From the IMG/VR virus record IMGVR_UViG_3300035182_001315: a stretch of 64,000 nucleotides of DNA. One strand, given 5' to 3'. The notes below the pieces were generated by a model, which worked only from the letters and a program-made list of their open reading frames with translations, was not told where the DNA came from and did no database searches. Both the position numbers and the translations under genes were made by a program. Shown piece by piece: positions 27,969 to 55,039 of the stretch (the stretch's first letter is position 1; each line of letters begins with the position of its first letter). The DNA comes from a virus (taxonomy: Duplodnaviria > Caudoviricetes).

Positions 27969-29368
27969 TTTAACTCGTACTTAGAACCCATGCCATAAAT
28001 CTGCATGTGTAATTGCTTTTTAGACAATTTATTGCTTTTCCATAAAGGAATAGAATAACGGTTTGATTTACCGGCATCAGGCTTAGATGGGCCAGCACCA
28101 ATAATATCATCCCAATCATTCATATCGATTCTGTAGCCTTGGTCTTCAGCATATTTTTTACCAGCGTATGTAGCATTTGCAAATATCTCATGGTAAAGTG
28201 GATAGTCGTATTTTGCCTCATCCAAAGCTTTAGGGTCAGGTCTAACTCCCGGTGTCACAACTGGCTGAAATGGTTTATCCCTTCTGCTTGGTTTGCTTGG
28301 AGCAGGAGTACTTGGTTTTGTTGTTGGAGCCGTTTTTGGCTTTTCTGGTGCAGGTGCTGGCATTTCTTCTTGATTAAAAGATTCCTTTAAAATTGATTTG
28401 ATACTCTCTTTATCTGCGAAGATACAAGTATTTTCTTCAATTGGCAAGTTTTCTTCTGTTTCTTCAGCTGCTTCCAACATATCATTAGACCCCAGCTGGA
28501 ACATGTTGTTCTTCTTTGGGTTATCTAAAAAAAATTGGCCTTCTTGCACCGATGGTTTTTCTACACCATATTCCTTAAGCTTAGCGAAAATCTCTTGAAG
28601 GTCTTCGTAATCAATTTCATCCTTAAGGTCATTCAAGAATTCGTTACGGTTTACCTTGCTGCTAAAAGACACAAGGCGAGTAAGAACCTGCTTAATTTGG
28701 TCAGAACCGTTATCGTAAATCTTAACAAGTTGTTGAGCGTTGTTATCGTTAAGTGACATTTCGTTCATAGCACCTTCTCCGCCTGCTGCTGGAGCTTCTG
28801 CGCCTGCTGCTGGAGCTTCTGCGGCAGCTGCTGGGGATTCGCCTGTTGGTGCTTCAGCATCAGCGCCCGGAGCCTGAGAATCGTCCACATCATCACCCTT
28901 ATCTTCATCACCCTTGTCGTCCTTGGTTTCAGCGTTGGCTGTACCAGCGGTTTCAACCTTCTTGATAATATCTGATTGGTCTTCAGCGTCCATGGTGCCG
29001 GTGTGGGATGCTGATAACAATGAGTTAATAGCAAACTTTTCCAGTTCCAAATCAGGTTGGCCTTGGGTTTCGTTGTATTTTCTTAGGGATTGTCCTAACT
29101 TACCAGTAAGTTGTTCGATGAATTTCTTTGGGTCAGATTCTTCGCTCGCTTCAACACCGGCATCAAATGGCTGGTCGTCGAAAGGCTTATCGTTACCACC
29201 GGCTGGAGCTTCACCAGTAGCTGGTGCTGTAGCATCCAATCCCAAATCAGGGGCTGCATCAGCAGCTGGGGCCGGTTCTTGAGCTGGAGCAGGGGCAGGG
29301 GTAGGGGCAGGAGTTTCACTGCCCAGCTTCAACTTGTATTTTACTTCGTTTACTTTAGGGAGTAAACT
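27953..29368 (-). CDS. low-complexity A/P/E-rich protein, probably the -1 frame extension of 29350..30048
   Basis: No early ATG; frame is open back to the A9 run at 29368-29376. Confidence 0.6.
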   Translation of the reverse strand, partial: SLLPKVNEVKYKLKLGSETPAPTPAPAPAQEPAPAADAAPDLGLDATAPATGEAPAGGNDKPFDDQPFDAGVEASEESDPKKFIEQLTGKLGQSLRKYNETQGQPDLELEKFAINSLLSASHTGTMDAEDQSDIIKKVETAGTANAETKDDKGDEDKGDDVDDSQAPGADAEAPTGESPAAAAEAPAAGAEAPAAGGEGAMNEMSLNDNNAQQLVKIYDNGSDQIKQVLTRLVSFSSKVNRNEFLNDLKDEIDYEDLQEIFAKLKEYGVEKPSVQEGQFFLDNPKKNNMFQLGSNDMLEAAEETEENLPIEENTCIFADKESIKSILKESFNQEEMPAPAPEKPKTAPTTKPSTPAPSKPSRRDKPFQPVVTPGVRPDPKALDEAKYDYPLYHEIFANATYAGKKYAEDQGYRIDMNDWDDIIGAGPSKPDAGKSNRYSIPLWKSNKLSKKQLHMQIYGMGSKYELNCYIQ

Positions 29369-30048
29369 TTTTTTTTATTTTTTCCAGAAACAACATCATC
29401 TACGATGTTATCCATTTCAGCCAAAGAAGTCTTGATTGACAAACGCCCTTCAACAACCGGAGCCTTACCATCATTATCTTCAACTTCCAACATGTCATCA
29501 ACAGCCTGTTCAACTTCAGAAAGTTCAACATCATGTCCTTCCATATCCATATCTTCGCTTTCTGAAATCATGTTACCACACTCAGAGCATTTGCCTTCGT
29601 TGATTGGTGCATGACAGCATTCGCTTTCATTAACGCTTTCGTTTGTAGCAAAACCTTCACCAAAAGCAACATTCTCAGAAAGATTGTCGTTTTCGAATAC
29701 GTTGATTTGACCAGACTTGCCCAAAGCTTCGTTTAAGCTATTGAACTTAAGGTTCAAGAACTTGATAGCCTTAGCGTAAGAAGGGTGAGCATGAGACTTC
29801 TTGTTCTGAAGTCCGCCGATGTATTTGAAATCCTCAGAAAGGATGTTATCCTTCTTATCAGTAACCTTGATGTAATACTCGTGGTTTTCACGAACAATAC
29901 CATAAACGTTACCGTCTGGACCTACCTTGGTAAGCTCAACAGTTGAGGTTGAATGATTCTTGTTAAGAGTAGTAATACCCATTAACTCCTTCATACGTTC
30001 GTTAATTTCTTGGCCTTTTAAACCAACTGGACTGATTCTATCTTTCAT
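29350..30048 (-). CDS. hypothetical head-module protein ending in a KKK-coding A9 run
   Basis: 232-aa ORF behind an ATATTTAT motif. Confidence 0.7.
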   Translation of the reverse strand: MKDRISPVGLKGQEINERMKELMGITTLNKNHSTSTVELTKVGPDGNVYGIVRENHEYYIKVTDKKDNILSEDFKYIGGLQNKKSHAHPSYAKAIKFLNLKFNSLNEALGKSGQINVFENDNLSENVAFGEGFATNESVNESECCHAPINEGKCSECGNMISESEDMDMEGHDVELSEVEQAVDDMLEVEDNDGKAPVVEGRLSIKTSLAEMDNIVDDVVSGKNKKKVYSLK

Positions 30049-36393: not shown

Positions 36394-38925
36394 ATGAACA
36401 TAGAAACAAGCCCAAAGGTCAAAGCAATTATGGCCAAAGCAAATAAAGAAGCAAAGTCGTTTGATGATATTAAAATCAGACCAGAGCATATTCTACTTTC
36501 TATACTTAATGACGATGATAATCTGTGTGTTACAATATTAAAAACACTTCAGGTAGATATCACCGACCTTCATGATAAGCTATCTGATAATCTGCGTAAA
36601 ACAGATTTAACCCCAAGAGTTTCAAGAGCTGGAAAAGAAAAGCTTCCGTTTTCGGATGAATCTCAGAAGGTAATGAAAAATTTGGATGCTGAATGCAAGA
36701 ACTTTAATGACAGAATGATTGACACAACCCATGTTATTCTTTCAATCCTTGCTAATAAAACACCTTCAACAACCTTACTTAGCGAAGTAGGTGTAACTTA
36801 CAAAACTTTTAAATCAGCTATGTTAGACATCAACGGAACAAACACAGACCCAAAGAGCGAACATTTCGAAGAAAATGAAGATTTTCCAGAAACCCCAGAA
36901 CCAGCAAAAAGAAACAAAAAAGTGAAAGAAGCATCAAAAACTCCAGTCCTTGACAACTTCTGTCGTGATATCAGCAAGGCAGTTGAACGTGGCGAAATTG
37001 ACCCAGTTGTTGGCCGTGCCAAAGAAATCAAAAGAATGGCCCAAATTCTTTCCAGAAGAAAGAAGAATAATCCAGTTCTTATCGGTGAGCCGGGAGTGGG
37101 CAAAACAGCTATCGTTGAAGGCTTGGCCCAGATGATTTATGATGGCAACGCCCCAAGACCTCTTATTGGTAAAAGAATCGTTGCTTTGGACCTTGCAGTA
37201 TTGGTTGCCGGTACCAAATACCGTGGCCAGTTTGAAGAAAGAATGAAAGCCGTATTACAGGAATGTAAGGCTAACCCAGATGTTGTTCTCTTCATTGATG
37301 AACTTCATACAATTATGGGTGCCGGTAACGCATCAGGTTCATTGGACGCATCAAACATCTTCAAGCCACCTTTGGCTCGTGGAGAACTTCAGGTTATCGG
37401 TGCAACAACACTTGATGAATTCAGAGAATCTATTGAAAAAGACGGTGCTCTTAACAGAAGATTCATTCAGGTATTGGTTGAAGAACCAACCGTGGAAGAA
37501 ACCATCATTGTCCTTAAGAACATAAAGTCCAAATACGAAGCTCACCACAAGGTGACATATACCGATGAGGCTATCGAAGAGTGCGCAAGACTTGCTCACA
37601 GATACATCACGGACAAATTTTTACCAGACAAGGCCATCGATGTTATGGATGAGGCCGGTGCTGCAACAAACATTGAGTTTGAAAAGCCGCAAATCATAAA
37701 GGACCTTCAAGCAAAGAGAGATATTATCCTTTCCAAGAAAAAGGATGTTGTCAACAAACAGAAGTACGAAGAAGCCGCTATGCTCAGAGATGAGGAAAGA
37801 AAGGTTGAAGAACAATTGAAGGCCGAGCTGAAGGAACTTAATGCAAAGCTCGACAAAAAAATTACTCCAGTTGGTGTTGAGAATATCGCTGAAATCGTGT
37901 CAATGATGACAGGTATTCCACTTACAAAGGTTTCAAGCCAAGAAAGCAAGAGACTGAAGAATCTGGATAAAGAACTTCAAGGCAAGGTTATCGGTCAGGA
38001 CGAAGCGATTACAAAGGTTGTTAAGGCAATCAGAAGAAATCGTGTTGGTATTACCGACAAGAACAAGCCAATGGGCTCATTTATCTTCCTTGGCCCTACA
38101 GGTGTGGGAAAAACAGAACTTGCAAAGCTTTTGGCAAAGCAAGTGTTCGGTGACGAAGAAGCAATGATTCGTATCGATATGAGTGAATACATGGAGAAGT
38201 TCTCCATAAGCAGACTTATCGGTGCGCCTCCGGGCTACGTGGGTTATGATGAAGGTGGCCAGCTTACCGAAAAGGTAAGAAGAAAGCCTTATTCCTTGGT
38301 TCTTTTGGATGAAATCGAAAAGGCTCATGAAGATGTTTATAACCTTCTGTTGCAAATTTTGGAAGACGGTCACTTAACTGACGGTCTGGGTAGAAAGGTA
38401 AACTTCAAGAATACCCTTATCATCATGACATCGAACATCGGTACCGCTGAATTGGCTGCAATTGGTAGCTCAGTTGGTTTCCAAACGCTCGTTAGTGGTG
38501 CTCAGGACCTTTCAAGAGAAAAGGCTGTTATCGACAAGGCATTGAAGAAGAAGTTCAGACCAGAATTCTTGAACCGTCTGGATGATGCAATTGCCTTCAA
38601 CCACTTGACTCAGGAAGACATGCACAAGATTATTTACATGGAATTGGATAAGGTTCATGCAAGGCTCAAGGAACAAGGTTACAAGTTGACCATTTCTGAA
38701 GATGCCGTTAAGCATTTGGCCGTGGAAGGATACAGCAACGAATTCGGCGCAAGGCCGCTGAAGCGTGTTCTTCAGAAGCAGATTGAAGACCCTGTGGCTG
38801 ATAATATCTTGGACGAAAGCCTTGTAAAGGGTGGAACGATTAAGATAGGATTCGACAAAACAGAGAAAGTCATAACGGTGAAAGTCACCGGCGTTTCGAA
38901 AGAAGCGAAAGAAGCGGTAGAATAA
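36394..38925 (+). CDS. clpC: ClpB/ClpC-family AAA+ chaperone (Hsp100)
   Basis: Clp N-domain, two AAA modules ([13 protein letters not shown]; [17 protein letters not shown]), UVR-like middle coil, FGARPLKR. Confidence 0.9.
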
Positions 38926-39372: not shown

Positions 39373-39675
39373 ATGAAACTCGAAGAACTTTTAGAAAGAG
39401 CCAAGGACCTTATCCTGAACGGAACAATCAAAGGCTACACTTCCCAAATGTTTGAGGAAGCTGTAAAGAACGACCCTGTTCTATTCGCAGAATTATTGGA
39501 TGAAGTCGGCCAGCAAGTAAAGGATTCAGATAGCCACAAGCAAACCGTAAGCATTTACGGCGAAGAACTCTCCGGCGTGGCCCTTGCATTCCATATGCTG
39601 AAGGTCGCAGAAGAACAAGGGATACAGGAAAATTTTATCAGAAGCCTTGTCTACAAAAAATTAAGAATCCTTTAA
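39373..39675 (+). CDS. hypothetical protein
   Basis: 100-aa ORF abutting upstream stop. Confidence 0.55.
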   Translation: MKLEELLERAKDLILNGTIKGYTSQMFEEAVKNDPVLFAELLDEVGQQVKDSDSHKQTVSIYGEELSGVALAFHMLKVAEEQGIQENFIRSLVYKKLRIL

Positions 39676-39757
39676 CCCAACATATTCATGGCTGAAACAA
39701 ATCCTTTTGTTGTCAGTGTAATGACCATTGTGAATATTCTTGTGAGTAACATCAATT
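39661..39757 (-). pseudogene. orphan diverged copy of the GNAT gene 3' end
   Basis: RIDVTHKNIHNGHYTDNKRICFSHEYVG versus RTDVTHKNVFNNHYTDNKRLCGSFEYIG in the gene just upstream. Confidence 0.8.
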
Positions 39758-40237
39758 CTAAATTCTATTTTCGCCGATGTACTCAAAACTACCACATAAT
39801 CGCTTATTGTCTGTATAGTGATTATTAAAAACATTTTTATGGGTAACATCGGTTCTTAATTTCTTATGTTTATTAGTTGGTTTCCATAGTGGGGATTTTT
39901 CACGATAATCTATCATGCGTGGGTGTGCTGTACGTGAGAAGTACCTGTGGCCCTGTTCCAGATGGATTTGCGCCAGTGCATCCGAAAACCTAACACCAAT
40001 ACCCAATCCTTGAAAGTCAGGCAGGATAACCGTCCTGTGACCTCTCCAGCCATTCTTGAAATACGGGTTCGGCATCGACATGGTTGCACCAAACGCCACA
40101 ATCTCATCCTGCCAGATTCCTACATAACATCTGGCGACATTATTGATATCACCACTTAGATAATGATGGTTCTTAAACATGGGCCATATATGATAGCTCG
40201 CTCTGTATACTTCAATCCTGATTTCTGGGCGGACAAA
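39758..40237 (-). CDS. GNAT acetyltransferase domain, -1 frame continuation of the ABC ATPase
   Basis: WPMFKNHHYL, HRTVILPDFQGLGIG (acetyl-CoA binding QGxGIG), YFSRTAHP. Confidence 0.8.
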   Translation of the reverse strand, partial: FVRPEIRIEVYRASYHIWPMFKNHHYLSGDINNVARCYVGIWQDEIVAFGATMSMPNPYFKNGWRGHRTVILPDFQGLGIGVRFSDALAQIHLEQGHRYFSRTAHPRMIDYREKSPLWKPTNKHKKLRTDVTHKNVFNNHYTDNKRLCGSFEYIGENRI

Positions 40238-40833
40238 AAAAAACCCTGATTGAATTCCCCAGAATCGGTATCAATTACCCAATCAGGTTCCAGCCAATCC
40301 AAGATATCCCTGTGACATGTGGCCACAACTACATTGTTTATCTCATTGCTCTTAAGGTATCTCGAAAGGGACACGGATGCAGCCCTTGCAACATTCCTAT
40401 CCACCACGCTGGTAAACTCATCAATAATGCTACCTGACTTAAGCTTTCTGGCAAGGTCAGCCCTGAACTTTTCACCGTTGGAAAGGATGTCATAAGGCTT
40501 GTACCATGAGGGAATGCTGTTTAACCCAACCGCACCCATCTTATTGATGGCTTCATCGGGGTCATTGAAATGAGAAAGTATGGATTTTGTGTTATCCCAA
40601 ACTGGGGTATCTTCGGTACCAAACTGGTTAAGCAGTGTTGATTTGCCGGAGCCGGATGAGCCAACAATAACGCCGAGTCTGAATGTTTGAGGAATGGTTG
40701 CCGGTACCTGCCATGGCAAGAAGGTTGATGTGCCGTTGAATGCGCAATCAAAAGCCTTTTCACTGGCTAATATAAACTTATCTTTGGTAACTTGAGCGAC
40801 CAGTGGCTGGTCAGACCTGAGCAATTTTTCCAT
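40156..40833 (-). CDS. ABC-type ATPase (soluble, no membrane partner)
   Basis: GSSGSGKS (Walker A), LSNGE (signature), IIDEFTSVVDR (Walker B/D-loop), ATCH (H-loop). Confidence 0.88.
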   Translation of the reverse strand: MEKLLRSDQPLVAQVTKDKFILASEKAFDCAFNGTSTFLPWQVPATIPQTFRLGVIVGSSGSGKSTLLNQFGTEDTPVWDNTKSILSHFNDPDEAINKMGAVGLNSIPSWYKPYDILSNGEKFRADLARKLKSGSIIDEFTSVVDRNVARAASVSLSRYLKSNEINNVVVATCHRDILDWLEPDWVIDTDSGEFNQGFFLSAQKSGLKYTERAIIYGPCLRTIII

Positions 40834-40940
40834 CCCTGAGAATATACGGATGGTTGGGAAGATGTCAAGAGATTCATAAAATAGAATAGCTTGTGGATTT
40901 TAACACCCACAAGCTGTACTATTTATTTGTTGTTTTTAAC

Positions 40941-41815: not shown

Positions 41816-43234
41816 TTATATCTTTGTTTGTGGTAATAACTCCTTTAATTTCTGATAATTGGCAGTCCCTATTTCATCTTCCTTTACAACGATACGGAAT
41901 AATGAACCGCCGTTGCTCTTATCCAAATATTTAATTTCCTCAGGAATATGCTTTAACCTGTTGCCAAGAAGGTTGAGTAAGTCAACGTTCTTCAGGTTGC
42001 CAATTTCCTTTGGAAGTGATGTTAGGTTGTTCCCCGGCAAAGACAGCATTTCAAGTGTTGTCAGATTACCAACCGATGGATGCAATTCACAAAGCTTCGC
42101 ATTCGAAATGATAAGCTGTTCGATGTTCTTAAACTTTGAGATATCAGGAAGTCTTGGAATTTCTCTGGTGGTGATTTTGATTGATGGAGAATTTGCATCC
42201 AGCAATTCAAAAAGACTCTCAGCAAAACCAAACTTTATCAGATAGTCCAAATATTTGTTCTTATCGATACCAGTTTTGTTGGCCTTCGCCATCGCCATTA
42301 ATTCTTCATAGAAAAAATTGGTAAGCCCTTCGCTTTGCCTTAAAACTTTTTCATAGATGCTTACGTTCCCTGAGTTGCTTCTGTCCTTTAACTGGTCAGT
42401 CTCAAAGTGAATCTGATAAAGCTCTTGGGATTCTCCCGTGAAAAACTTATTGTTGATAATGATATACAAATTTGATGTTGGCCCCAGCGGTGTTTTATAC
42501 GAAGTGTAATTCGTAAACATACCGTTGTTTTTTCTCGCCGTACACCAGTTCGCAAAACCATCAAATACTTCACTCGCATCTGTTGACTTCGGAATATAAA
42601 GTGTAAACTTTCTATCCTTAACAGGAATGATAGCCTGCCCTATATCAACAAATCTTGTTATCTTCCTTTCAACTGCGCTTGGTTCCCTCTCAATAAATGG
42701 GTCAACCGCATCAAACAATTGAGATAAGGATTTATACTGGTTTATATCCGTAGGGTCTTTGATATCTTTTACAATATATGAACCCTTGCATAATTCCTTG
42801 AATCTTTGTTTTCTTTTATTACCTTCAAACAGAGTGATATACGCACTCGCCTGTGGCAAATCCTCAACCGCAAATCTCAACGCCATATCCAAAGCAGTAC
42901 CACCTTTCCAGATATATCTTGTGAATGTATTAAGCATCCACTGTACATACGACTTGTTCGGTGTTGGGTCGGCAGCAATCATCGCAGTAAAGGTTTTCAG
43001 CTCGATGCTGATTTTCTTTATCTGCCTGTCCTTAACCTCAGAAGTACTCTTGGTCCATGTTAGGGCAAGCGGTGATTCTTCGGTTCCAATTAACTTAACC
43101 TTATAACCATCAGCCTCTAACGCTGAGATTTTTTCATCAGTTGCTTTGGTTTTTCCCTTTTCGGATATGCCTTCGAAAACATCGAACTTCTCCGCTAAAA
43201 ACGAAATTCTATCTTTGGTTTTTTGCTCTGTCAT
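41816..43234 (-). CDS. protein with a central WCT..YxxHF domain and C-terminal leucine-rich repeats
   Basis: LCELHPSVGNLTTLEMLSLPGNNLTSLPKEIGNLKNVDLLNLLGNRLKHIPEEI matches LxxLPxxIGxLxxLxxLxLxxN. Confidence 0.8.
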   Translation of the reverse strand: MTEQKTKDRISFLAEKFDVFEGISEKGKTKATDEKISALEADGYKVKLIGTEESPLALTWTKSTSEVKDRQIKKISIELKTFTAMIAADPTPNKSYVQWMLNTFTRYIWKGGTALDMALRFAVEDLPQASAYITLFEGNKRKQRFKELCKGSYIVKDIKDPTDINQYKSLSQLFDAVDPFIEREPSAVERKITRFVDIGQAIIPVKDRKFTLYIPKSTDASEVFDGFANWCTARKNNGMFTNYTSYKTPLGPTSNLYIIINNKFFTGESQELYQIHFETDQLKDRSNSGNVSIYEKVLRQSEGLTNFFYEELMAMAKANKTGIDKNKYLDYLIKFGFAESLFELLDANSPSIKITTREIPRLPDISKFKNIEQLIISNAKLCELHPSVGNLTTLEMLSLPGNNLTSLPKEIGNLKNVDLLNLLGNRLKHIPEEIKYLDKSNGGSLFRIVVKEDEIGTANYQKLKELLPQTKI

Positions 43235-45416: not shown

Positions 45417-45602
45417 TCCAGAACGCCACTATCACCGGCGTAATCCCTAACATCATAAAGATGTTCCCATGTGCCTCACCACATAGGCCAAAGATATGTC
45501 TTAAAAACTCAATCATGTAAAAAAAAATTTGCAACAAAGATACAATATCCAAACCAAACTGCAAGTGTTTGACTAAAATTTTATTTTCATTATATTACCC
45601 AC

Positions 45603-49260: not shown

Positions 49261-49664
49261 AATTTATTTTTATTATATTCTACATGGGGGCAAATCCCAC
49301 CATTAATCGCCCTCCCCAAATTACAATTAAAACATAACACTTGTAAATCGGGTCTTTTATCTTCATTCTTTAATTTTAAATAATATTGATAAGAACTACC
49401 CTTCCTCGAATTATATAAATCCTGTCGTTCGATATTACCATTGTTATTAACATGGTCAATAGTTAAAAAATTATGTTCATCTTCTCCACAACAAGCACAA
49501 CAATTACCGTATTTATCAATTACTATTTTTTTTTTTTATTTTTTGGCGATAATTTTTTTGTTGTGTTTTATTATCGTGATTTTTAACATATTTTTCTTGT
49601 ATTGATTTTTTTTAATTAAACAATCTGAGCAACCAACAGAATTTTTATTTGCTTTCTTATTAGC
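49257..49664 (-). pseudogene. degraded HNH homing endonuclease
   Basis: VIDKYGNCCACCGE...FLTIDHVNNNG, then after a frameshift LQVLCFNCN.G...CPH; an in-frame TAA at 49536. Confidence 0.75.
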
Positions 49665-54844: not shown

Positions 54845-54954
54845 GGGGTCATGGGGGCCATATAGGGGGCATACGGGGGGGTATATAAGGGGGGTAACGG
54901 GGGACGTGGGTACGGGAGGGGGGTGTACAGGGGGGGGGGGGGGGGGTAAACGGG
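54845..54954 (+). other. G-tract cluster (11 runs of 3 or more G, including G17); candidate origin element
   Basis: Read directly; GC skew changes sign across this locus. Confidence 0.6.
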
Positions 54955-55039
54955 TGGTTAGATATGTCGTTTTGTATTTGAGGTATTTGTGTTTCATGTT
55001 GTAAAGATAAGACTATTTTTCGGATTACCAAATTTATTT

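Follow-up and report, generated by a model that had tools for sequence, protein, structure and literature searches.

The 64,000-nucleotide stretch of viral DNA analysed here (IMG/VR virus record IMGVR_UViG_3300035182_001315; Duplodnaviria, Caudoviricetes), referred to throughout as the window, carries two overlapping open reading frames (ORFs) on its minus strand between positions 39758 and 40833, one for an ABC-type ATPase and one for a GNAT domain. Comparison with related phage contigs indicates that these two ORFs are very probably one recoded phage gene, joined by a -1 shift at a run of nine T (T9) on the sense strand. The features at the locus are as follows.

40156 to 40833, minus strand: zero-frame ORF of 225 amino acids, from ATG at 40833 to TAA at 40158-40156, with the ABC-type ATPase in residues 1-199 and a tail in residues 200-225.
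40235 to 40243, minus strand: T9 run on the sense strand, the putative recoding site, by direct reading; kept in relatives.
40237 to 40246, minus strand: two overlapping heptamers of the form X_XXY_YYZ, G_GGT_TTT (40246-40240) and T_TTT_TTT (40243-40237).
39758 to 40237, minus strand: -1 frame segment after the shift, comprising F, the linker VRPEIRIEVYRASYHIWP, the GNAT core (motif A QGLGIG) and the stop TAG at 39760-39758.
40156 to 40236, minus strand: dual-coded overlap, in which the zero frame holds the 26 tail codons and their stop while the -1 frame encodes the linker, first strand and first helix of the GNAT.
40178 to 40180, minus strand: internal ATG (MFK...), taken in the ORF listing as the start of a 140-amino-acid GNAT protein; improbable as a functional start.

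The zero frame reads Q196 CAG (40248-40246), G197 GGT (40245-40243), F198 TTT, F199 TTT (40239-40237) and L200 TTG (40236-40234), and after T9 it runs for 26 further codons to TAA. The -1 frame is closed by a stop upstream, is open from 40270, and from the T run reads F-VRPEIRIEVYRASYHIWPMFKNHHYL... to TAG at 39760-39758. Standard decoding would yield a 225-amino-acid ABC-type ATPase with a tail of 26 residues that appears to be selected, and a -1 shift at T9 would yield a protein of 358 amino acids (199 + 1 + 158) in which the ATPase is followed by a complete GNAT acyltransferase. The coordinates, the T9 run, the -1 peptide and the 358-residue fusion had been given in an earlier note made from the sequence alone (the initial annotation), and all proved correct by direct reading. 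Four A or T runs of nine or more were found in the window against about 1.9 expected by chance, so the T run by itself proves nothing and the proof lies in its conservation. Logan contigs from three runs, which may be the source sample, span the T9 without an insertion or deletion; T10, named at the outset as the sign of an assembly error, was not what these contigs contained.

The ATPase motifs were read directly in the order Walker A (GSSGSGKS), signature (LSNGEK), Walker B (IIDE) and H-loop (CH), and all four are invariant in 47 relatives. Pfam ABC_tran matched the ATPase ORF at 25.2 bits, against a cut-off of 25, over the Walker A region only. The C-terminal part of the window protein fell below the Pfam cut-offs for Acetyltransf_1 (19.9 versus 20.7 bits) and Acetyltransf_7 (18 versus 27 bits); precomputed PF00583 or PF13508 matches are present on many homologues, and the acyl-CoA motif Q/RxxGxG/A is present as QGLGIG, with Q279, G280 and G284 invariant and G282 nearly so. 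Both pieces fall within one profile, phrog_11143 (357 positions): the ATPase ORF aligns to its positions 19-194 (E 1.9e-57), the -1 frame piece to positions 200-352 (E 5.9e-37). The order ATPase-GNAT in one polypeptide is found in the window as well, with the two halves joined only through the -1 shift.

At the junction, 98 in-frame homologues share the pattern G-R-x-L-x-R-P, and R206, P207, W221, F224, H228, Y229 and L230 are invariant or nearly so; conservation of the RP...W linker in fused homologues, which the initial annotation had set as a check, was thus found. These residues are all coded in the window's -1 frame, from the T run to just beyond the internal ATG. An AlphaFold2 (AF2) model of an in-frame homologue (P0002 from locus L060; predicted local distance difference test score (pLDDT) 93.5, predicted template modelling score 0.87) places the linker stretch in a GNAT strand (212-216) and helix (218-223). 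Foldseek matched the N-terminal half of this model to MalK, Wzt and other nucleotide-binding domains (E ~1e-6 to 1e-7, probability 1.0) and the C-terminal domain to the generic GNATs 1y9k and 2ae6 (template modelling score 0.63 by target), which are small-molecule or protein acetyltransferases. Since the linker strand and helix lie upstream of the internal ATG, a GNAT started at that Met would be truncated. No Shine-Dalgarno-like sequence was seen before this ATG on direct reading, the ATG also encodes a conserved Cys of the tail, and position 40180 is probably not the functional start of the GNAT. The need for a fusion is strongly supported by the profile that spans both halves, by the invariant linker and by its place in the GNAT strand and helix.

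The family includes at least 7,971 proteins with E <= 1e-10, a lower bound from the 8,000 candidates scored, and these are mostly 350-370 amino acids long and in frame. Among cultured phages, in-frame fusions are found in Aeromonas phage PX29 (gp085, 392 amino acids) and Nonlabens phage P12024S (gp24, 379 amino acids), Tenacibaculum phage pT24 is among the sequence relatives, and Thomasclavelia phage TR-TP1 carries the ABC and acetyltransferase parts as two separate genes. The 2.8-kb neighbourhood had no megablast match among GenBank phages, hence no close cultured relative there, and the searchable literature yielded no description of frameshifting in an ABC/GNAT gene of a phage.

A scan of IMG/VR gave 80 related loci (60-75% amino acid identity), in which the two halves were placed by tblastn. 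The gene was frameshifted in 70 of these 80 viral contigs, representing 56 distinct junction sequences, and in all 70 the C-terminal half lay in the -1 frame and began three bases past the end of the N-terminal half, at the same codon. In the relatives, the -1 frame becomes open 9-72 nucleotides upstream of the site, and the zero frame ends 81 nucleotides downstream. Run lengths in the 56 distinct loci were T9 (50 loci, exactly GGT TTT TTT TT(G/A)), T8 (one) and T4 (five, reading GGA AAT TTT or GGG GAT TTT); the heptamers left in the shortened runs are A_AAT_TTT and G_GAT_TTT. More distant relatives are in frame and lack the T run. In a maximum-likelihood tree all frameshifted loci formed one clade (support 94/96) with in-frame fused outgroups, the T4 loci formed one subclade (support 100/99), and T10 loci were isolated tips. 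The first scan contained three in-frame T10 contigs (two distinct) against 62 T9 contigs; overall, six in-frame T10 contigs were found, five of them distinct (L060, L069/70, L084-86), at scattered tips where they could be placed. No more T4-type loci came to light when the viral contigs were scanned a second time with a T4-type protein as the seed. Two of the T4-type loci in IMG/VR, L074 and L075, have an ATPase frame that is open far upstream, giving an apparent 723-amino-acid fusion, which is either an N-terminal domain fusion or the result of a missing stop.

Because the same break occurs in 50 distinct and strongly diverged sequences, in which wobble positions elsewhere are near saturation (pairwise identity 0.48 upstream and 0.50 downstream of the overlap), error can be set aside: judged from sequence comparison, the split appears real and programmed, and a sequencing error or recent pseudogene is effectively excluded. 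The confidence placed in programmed recoding, expressed above as very probable, is the sum, rounded, of the figures for polymerase slippage and for ribosomal shifting. The initial annotation had proposed that recoding gives ATPase-only and ATPase-GNAT products, and the split at the same codon in 70 of 80 contigs strongly supports this; its suggested alignment of homologues showed relatives split at the same GFF position in one clade and naturally fused outside it. It had also pointed to G GGT TTT as the slippery heptamer. That heptamer is present in the window, but it is poorly conserved, since most relatives have C or T before GGT (mostly the codons GAC, CAC or GAT), and the conserved element is T9.

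The zero-frame tail, which had been described as non-descript, is conserved in length and sequence and appears, from the comparisons below, to be under selection, as would be the short product that carries it. It was exactly 26 codons long and ended at the same stop position, inside the GNAT-frame HHYL codons, in 56 of 56 distinct loci. With the GNAT-frame protein of each locus held constant and synonymous codons drawn anew according to the usage of these genes, an open tail ending at that stop was kept in just 13% of the recodings. In other 26-codon windows of the same genes the +1 frame was open, on average, in 16% of loci for the ATPase part and 22% for the GNAT part, with a maximum of 77%. 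Wobble entropy was 0.70 bits in the overlap and 1.32 bits just downstream, and wobble pairwise identity was 0.72 in the overlap, above that of both flanks. Particular codons were strongly favoured in the overlap: ATC for Ile in 53 of 56 loci (15% usage elsewhere in these genes), GAC for Asp in 43 of 43 (22% elsewhere) and CCA for Pro in 51 of 54 (57% elsewhere); in-frame relatives have CCC for this Pro at the same sites, and CTC for the Leu that carries the stop. The claim of dual coding is drawn from the fixed stop position, the control with other windows and the site-specific codon bias. The consensus of the tail is L-S-x-Q-K-S...Y-I-x-Q...G-x-C-L-K-T-I-x-I. An AF2 model of the window's short product gave a pLDDT of ~90 for the ATPase part and ~43 for the tail, which is predicted to be disordered on its own. 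After removal of one T, the 26-codon tail frame was intact in all five distinct T10 contigs; these are either very recent, or erroneous, or still use both frames.

RNA folding of positions +4 to +62 downstream of the site in each locus revealed two kinds of signal. A strong hairpin is present in all five T4 loci and in the T8 one (folding energy -17 to -25 kcal/mol, z from -3.9 to -7.6), and its 10-base-pair stem (+7 to +16 with +46 to +55) begins 6 nucleotides after the heptamer, whereas most T9 loci have no comparable hairpin (z about 0). The stem positions paired at 9.8 of 10 in the T4 loci, 10 of 10 in the T8 locus and a mean of 6.1 of 10 in the 50 T9 loci, of which L055 (10 of 10) and L036 (9 of 10) are exceptions. 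In the window no stimulatory stem was found at 5-9 nucleotides downstream (-5.9 kcal/mol, z +1.2; 7 of 10 positions pairable, longest run 3). For a partly hand-picked set of eight loci (the five T4 loci, the T8 locus, and L055 and L036, the last two added after their folds had been seen), 97.5% of the cells paired and 4 of the 10 pairs had compensatory double changes; the covariation score was reached by none of 500 shuffles, and slid controls paired at 21-41%. The stem of the T8 locus is built from a different sequence (GCCCAACUAU / AUAGUUGGGC) and therefore represents a second, independent case of the hairpin. A_AAT_TTT conforms to the canonical X_XXY_YYZ pattern. Since four T cannot support polymerase slippage, the T4 lineages must use ribosomal -1 frameshifting.

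RNAalifold on 48 frameshifted loci together gave no meaningful consensus structure (-0.5 kcal/mol), and the hairpin emerged only once the loci were grouped by the length of the run. A search of Rfam returned nothing but chance matches below threshold. A pairing of GGUUUUU at the slip site with AAAGACC ~65 nucleotides downstream, frequent in single-sequence folds, was dropped because its columns, all invariant or coding, leave no room for covariation. An upstream GGnGA was likewise set aside as a possible Shine-Dalgarno-like stimulator, as the Gly wobble varies freely and many relatives have Bacteroidota-type TAnnTTTG boxes.

According to the literature (PMC5009743), bacterial transcription slips efficiently where nine A or T follow one another, and in E. 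coli the ribosome shifts less well on U_UUU_UUU than on A_AAA_AAG. The T9 of the window has the length given there for slippage (~9 or more A or T). We propose that the main route at this T9 is slippage of RNA polymerase on the nine-T template, by which one extra U would give a U10 mRNA that is read straight through into the GNAT frame, with -1 slippage of the ribosome on U_UUU_UUU or G_GGU_UUU as a minor contributor. In sister lineages with a shortened run, this signal would have been replaced by a heptamer followed 6 nucleotides downstream by a hairpin. The probability that polymerase slippage is the main route was put at roughly 0.55; it is favoured because the long run occurs without a stem and the short runs with one, and because exactly nine T are kept though seven would suffice for a heptamer. 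The choice between ribosomal and transcriptional shifting had been left open in the initial annotation, and the comparison now leans toward slippage for the T9 loci.

The closest competitor, a possible but clearly less probable account, is that the ribosome is the main agent at T9 through tandem -1 slippage of tRNA-Phe on U_UUU_UUU or G_GGU_UUU, the transcripts remaining U9. Canonical heptamers do exist in the window, the T4 subclade keeps the -1 layout with only A_AAT_TTT or G_GAT_TTT, where polymerase slippage is not possible, and L055 combines T9 with the full hairpin. This account leaves the maintenance of exactly nine T unexplained, however, and the T9 loci, the window included, have no stimulatory structure at the usual 5-9 nucleotides; the lower shiftiness of U_UUU_UUU compared with A_AAA_AAG in E. 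coli (PMC5009743) also speaks against it, and where a lineage lost T9, a strong hairpin was acquired or retained, as though to compensate. All readings other than slippage or ribosomal shifting were together given only a small chance. Two separate genes without a fusion, the GNAT starting at the ATG at 40180, is very unlikely: although phage TR-TP1 offers a precedent and the ATG occurs in 53 of 56 loci, the -1 frame upstream of it codes family-invariant residues and the first GNAT strand and helix, and the -1 frame of the T4 locus L067 contains no ATG, GTG or TTG between its closing TGA and that Met. The missing Shine-Dalgarno-like sequence adds to this, the conserved Cys of the tail explains the ATG equally well, and separate genes would leave the conservation of the T run and the hairpin without a reason.

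Equally doubtful is phase variation at the DNA level, with replication slippage toggling between T9 (short form) and T10 (fusion) so that each genome makes one product. In its favour, T9 and T10 contigs both exist, and the latter sit at scattered tips of the tree; yet they number 3 against 62 in the first scan, the T4 and T8 lineages hold the two-frame layout without a mutable run, and three assemblies of the phage showed no length variant, though contigs drop rare variants. Least probable of all is an assembly error or a recently broken gene whose true sequence is T10, the split being an artefact or pseudogene. Homopolymers are error-prone and in-frame T10 relatives do exist, but 50 strongly diverged sequences, taken from independent metagenomes, share the break, the length of the tail is fixed and its frame has codon constraints of its own, relatives have hairpin-bearing heptamer versions, and contigs of three runs give T9.

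Several points weigh against polymerase slippage at a site of selected dual coding. As the T4 subclade demonstrates, the gene can do with ribosomal shifting alone, and T9 may itself be a strong ribosomal site. The full hairpin of L055 accompanies a T9, a few other T9 loci have most of the stem, and the link between short runs and the hairpin comes from only two independent lineages. The pointer to the transcribing polymerase is a promoter that is a consensus match only. The T10 contigs may be homopolymer assembly errors, in which case they are uninformative on the mechanism. For the tail, the equivalent frame was stop-free between RP and HHYL in 25 of 25 in-frame relatives (~47% expected), a control that falls into few clusters with one dominant; the absence of premature stops alone was for this reason not relied on. 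A stop at the position of the tail's stop was found in 7 of these 25 relatives, as against 56 of 56 frameshifted loci. The lower wobble variation in the overlap could partly reflect constraint at the RNA or DNA level, rather than on the tail peptide.

ABC ATPases act as head-to-tail dimers, and the short and long forms of the recoded gene would, by inference, pair in this way. A complex of the long form (from an in-frame homologue), the window's short form and two ATP was modelled with a score of 0.81, against 0.25 for the best control, and the Walker A of one chain faces the signature of the other; three runs agreed in at least 90% of contacts, with a partner pLDDT of at least 85. In the calibration of the tool, the mark was passed by 58 of 80 complexes with a solved structure and by 2 of 110 mismatched pairs; these figures carry over only approximately, since own alignments and a ligand were used for this model. 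The ABC interface may be taken over from dimers of solved structure, so that the high score is a sign of likeness, not of binding. In the best run the short-form tail (214-225) touches the long-form GNAT at 208-217, 241-249 and 277-294, a modelled contact that amounts to no more than a testable explanation for the tail's apparent selection. A further and rather unlikely elaboration is that the active enzyme would be an obligate asymmetric heterodimer in which the tail of the short subunit docks on and gates the single GNAT of the long subunit, with the recoding site as a stoichiometry device that was swapped within the clade between polymerase slippage (T9) and heptamer plus hairpin while the 26-codon overlap stayed constant.

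With the short and long forms paired head to tail, the site would set the stoichiometry of an ATP-driven acyltransferase. Phage GNATs coupled with an ABC ATPase, for example that of Tenacibaculum phage pT24, were predicted by Iyer, Aravind and co-workers to carry out an uncharacterised acyl modification of a DNA base (PMC7824862). The suggestion in the initial annotation of a nucleic-acid-modifying ABC-GNAT enzyme agrees with this published prediction (PMC7824862), and DNA-base acylation by the family stands as a prediction only; no experiment on it was found in the literature.

The nearest parallel among known systems is dnaX, whose tau and gamma products arise in E. coli by a -1 ribosomal frameshift at A_AAA_AAG with a hairpin and in Thermus thermophilus by transcriptional slippage at a nine-base homopolymer run (PMC5009743). 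As in the window gene, the two dnaX products share an N-terminal ATPase and a fixed site sets their ratio, and as in the phage clade, lineages use either a heptamer with a hairpin or a nine-base homopolymer without one. The gene families differ, however, and the shifted product of dnaX is the shorter one, whereas the phage shift would add a whole catalytic domain; the zero-frame tail of the phage gene is also long (26 codons) and apparently selected. In Shigella, transcriptional slippage in mxiE, with the spa/mxi genes, gives an extended product (PMC5009743). The likeness to the phage gene lies in the extra transcript nucleotide at a T run that fuses two overlapping ORFs into a longer active protein; mxiE differs in encoding a bacterial transcription activator and not a phage enzyme. 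Its run is reportedly, according to Penno et al., one of nine T, and we know of no alternative mxiE lineages with a heptamer and hairpin.

Programmed -1 frameshifts also produce the OrfA-OrfAB transposases of IS1/IS3-type elements and the G/GT tail chaperones of phage lambda. In these, as here, a -1 shift near the end of the first ORF gives a fusion with a second domain and conservation of the site is the main evidence, and the T4 and T8 relatives share their classical heptamer-spacer-stem layout. They differ in that the proteins have no relationship, the slippery sequence here is U-rich and not A_AAA_AAG or G_GGA_AAG, and the window has no stem. The described phage ABC-GNAT proteins (those of pT24, PX29 gp085 and P12024S gp24) are sequence relatives with the same domains; they are single in-frame ORFs of ~350-390 amino acids, whereas the clade of the window would need recoding and would also have a tailed ATPase-only form. 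TmcA, which couples an NTPase to a GNAT for the acetylation of tRNA, and Mom of phage Mu, a DNA modifier with a GNAT fold, are analogous in function only: in both a GNAT acts on nucleic acid, and TmcA couples this to ATP hydrolysis. No relationship to either was found in sequence or in specific structure, the best fold matches being generic GNATs. Unusual in the present gene are the apparently selected dual-coded overlap of 26 codons, the two alternative signals in sister lineages and the catalytic domain that would be added by the shift.

The window belongs to a large tailed phage, with genes for a portal, a major head protein and a large terminase, and related contigs reach ~370 kb. Two features flank the recoded gene.

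40841 to 40915, minus strand: terminator-like hairpin (40915-40888), then a sigma-70-like TTGACA-16-TATATT (40868-40841), matching 11 of 12 consensus positions.
39661 to 39756, minus strand: diverged second copy of the last ~31 codons (IDVTHKN...RICFSHEYVG...), in the +1 frame directly after the stop.

The promoter box ends 7 nucleotides before the ATPase ATG, and similar boxes are found in some relatives; it comes from a consensus scan only, in which total sites were not above those of shuffles. This arrangement suggests that the gene may be its own, nearly leaderless transcription unit, read by a host-type RNA polymerase. A Bacteroidota-type -7 promoter box (TAnnTTTG) stands a few bases upstream of the ATG in many relatives (L036, L055, L064, L071 and others); this and the relatives in Tenacibaculum and Nonlabens phages hint at Bacteroidota hosts for part of the clade. 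At the 3' end, the window's in-frame C-terminus reads CGSFEYIG and the second copy CFSHEY; both are genuine C-termini elsewhere in the family, and both copies together occurred only in the window among the 80 loci of the first scan. The second copy is likely a leftover of a replacement of the 3' end.

Near the recoded gene lie an 843-amino-acid ClpA/B/C-type double-AAA+ chaperone (36394-38925, plus strand) and a 472-amino-acid leucine-rich-repeat protein (41816-43234, minus strand), a neighbourhood that recurs in relatives L084 and L086. Other long homopolymers of the window include T12 (49526-49537) and A9 (45519-45527), both apparently between listed ORFs. An in-frame A9 (K-N-K-K-K; 29368-29376, minus sense) stands eight codons before the stop of a 232-amino-acid ORF (29350..30048, minus strand), with the following ORF starting at 29332, and is a coding-region run of slippage-prone length. 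A G-rich intergenic tract (54880-54960) has several G5-G7 blocks and a G17 at 54930-54946 in a phage of 39.6% G+C, and could form a G-quadruplex or be an assembly oddity.

To our knowledge, programmed frameshift or slippage sites with strong comparative support are few, and most of those in phages are in tail-chaperone genes; the site described here sits in a large, uncharacterised family of phage enzymes. Gene callers give a 225-amino-acid "ABC transporter ATPase" and a truncated 140-amino-acid acetyltransferase at this locus, and under recoding neither annotation would describe the real products. The clade forms a natural experiment in which the same gene has either T9 or a heptamer with a hairpin, so that the two routes can be compared directly. 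A fixed ratio of the tailed ATPase-only form to the ATPase-GNAT form would suggest that the predicted DNA-acylating enzyme works as a mixed dimer, and this idea offers a concrete start for its biochemistry.

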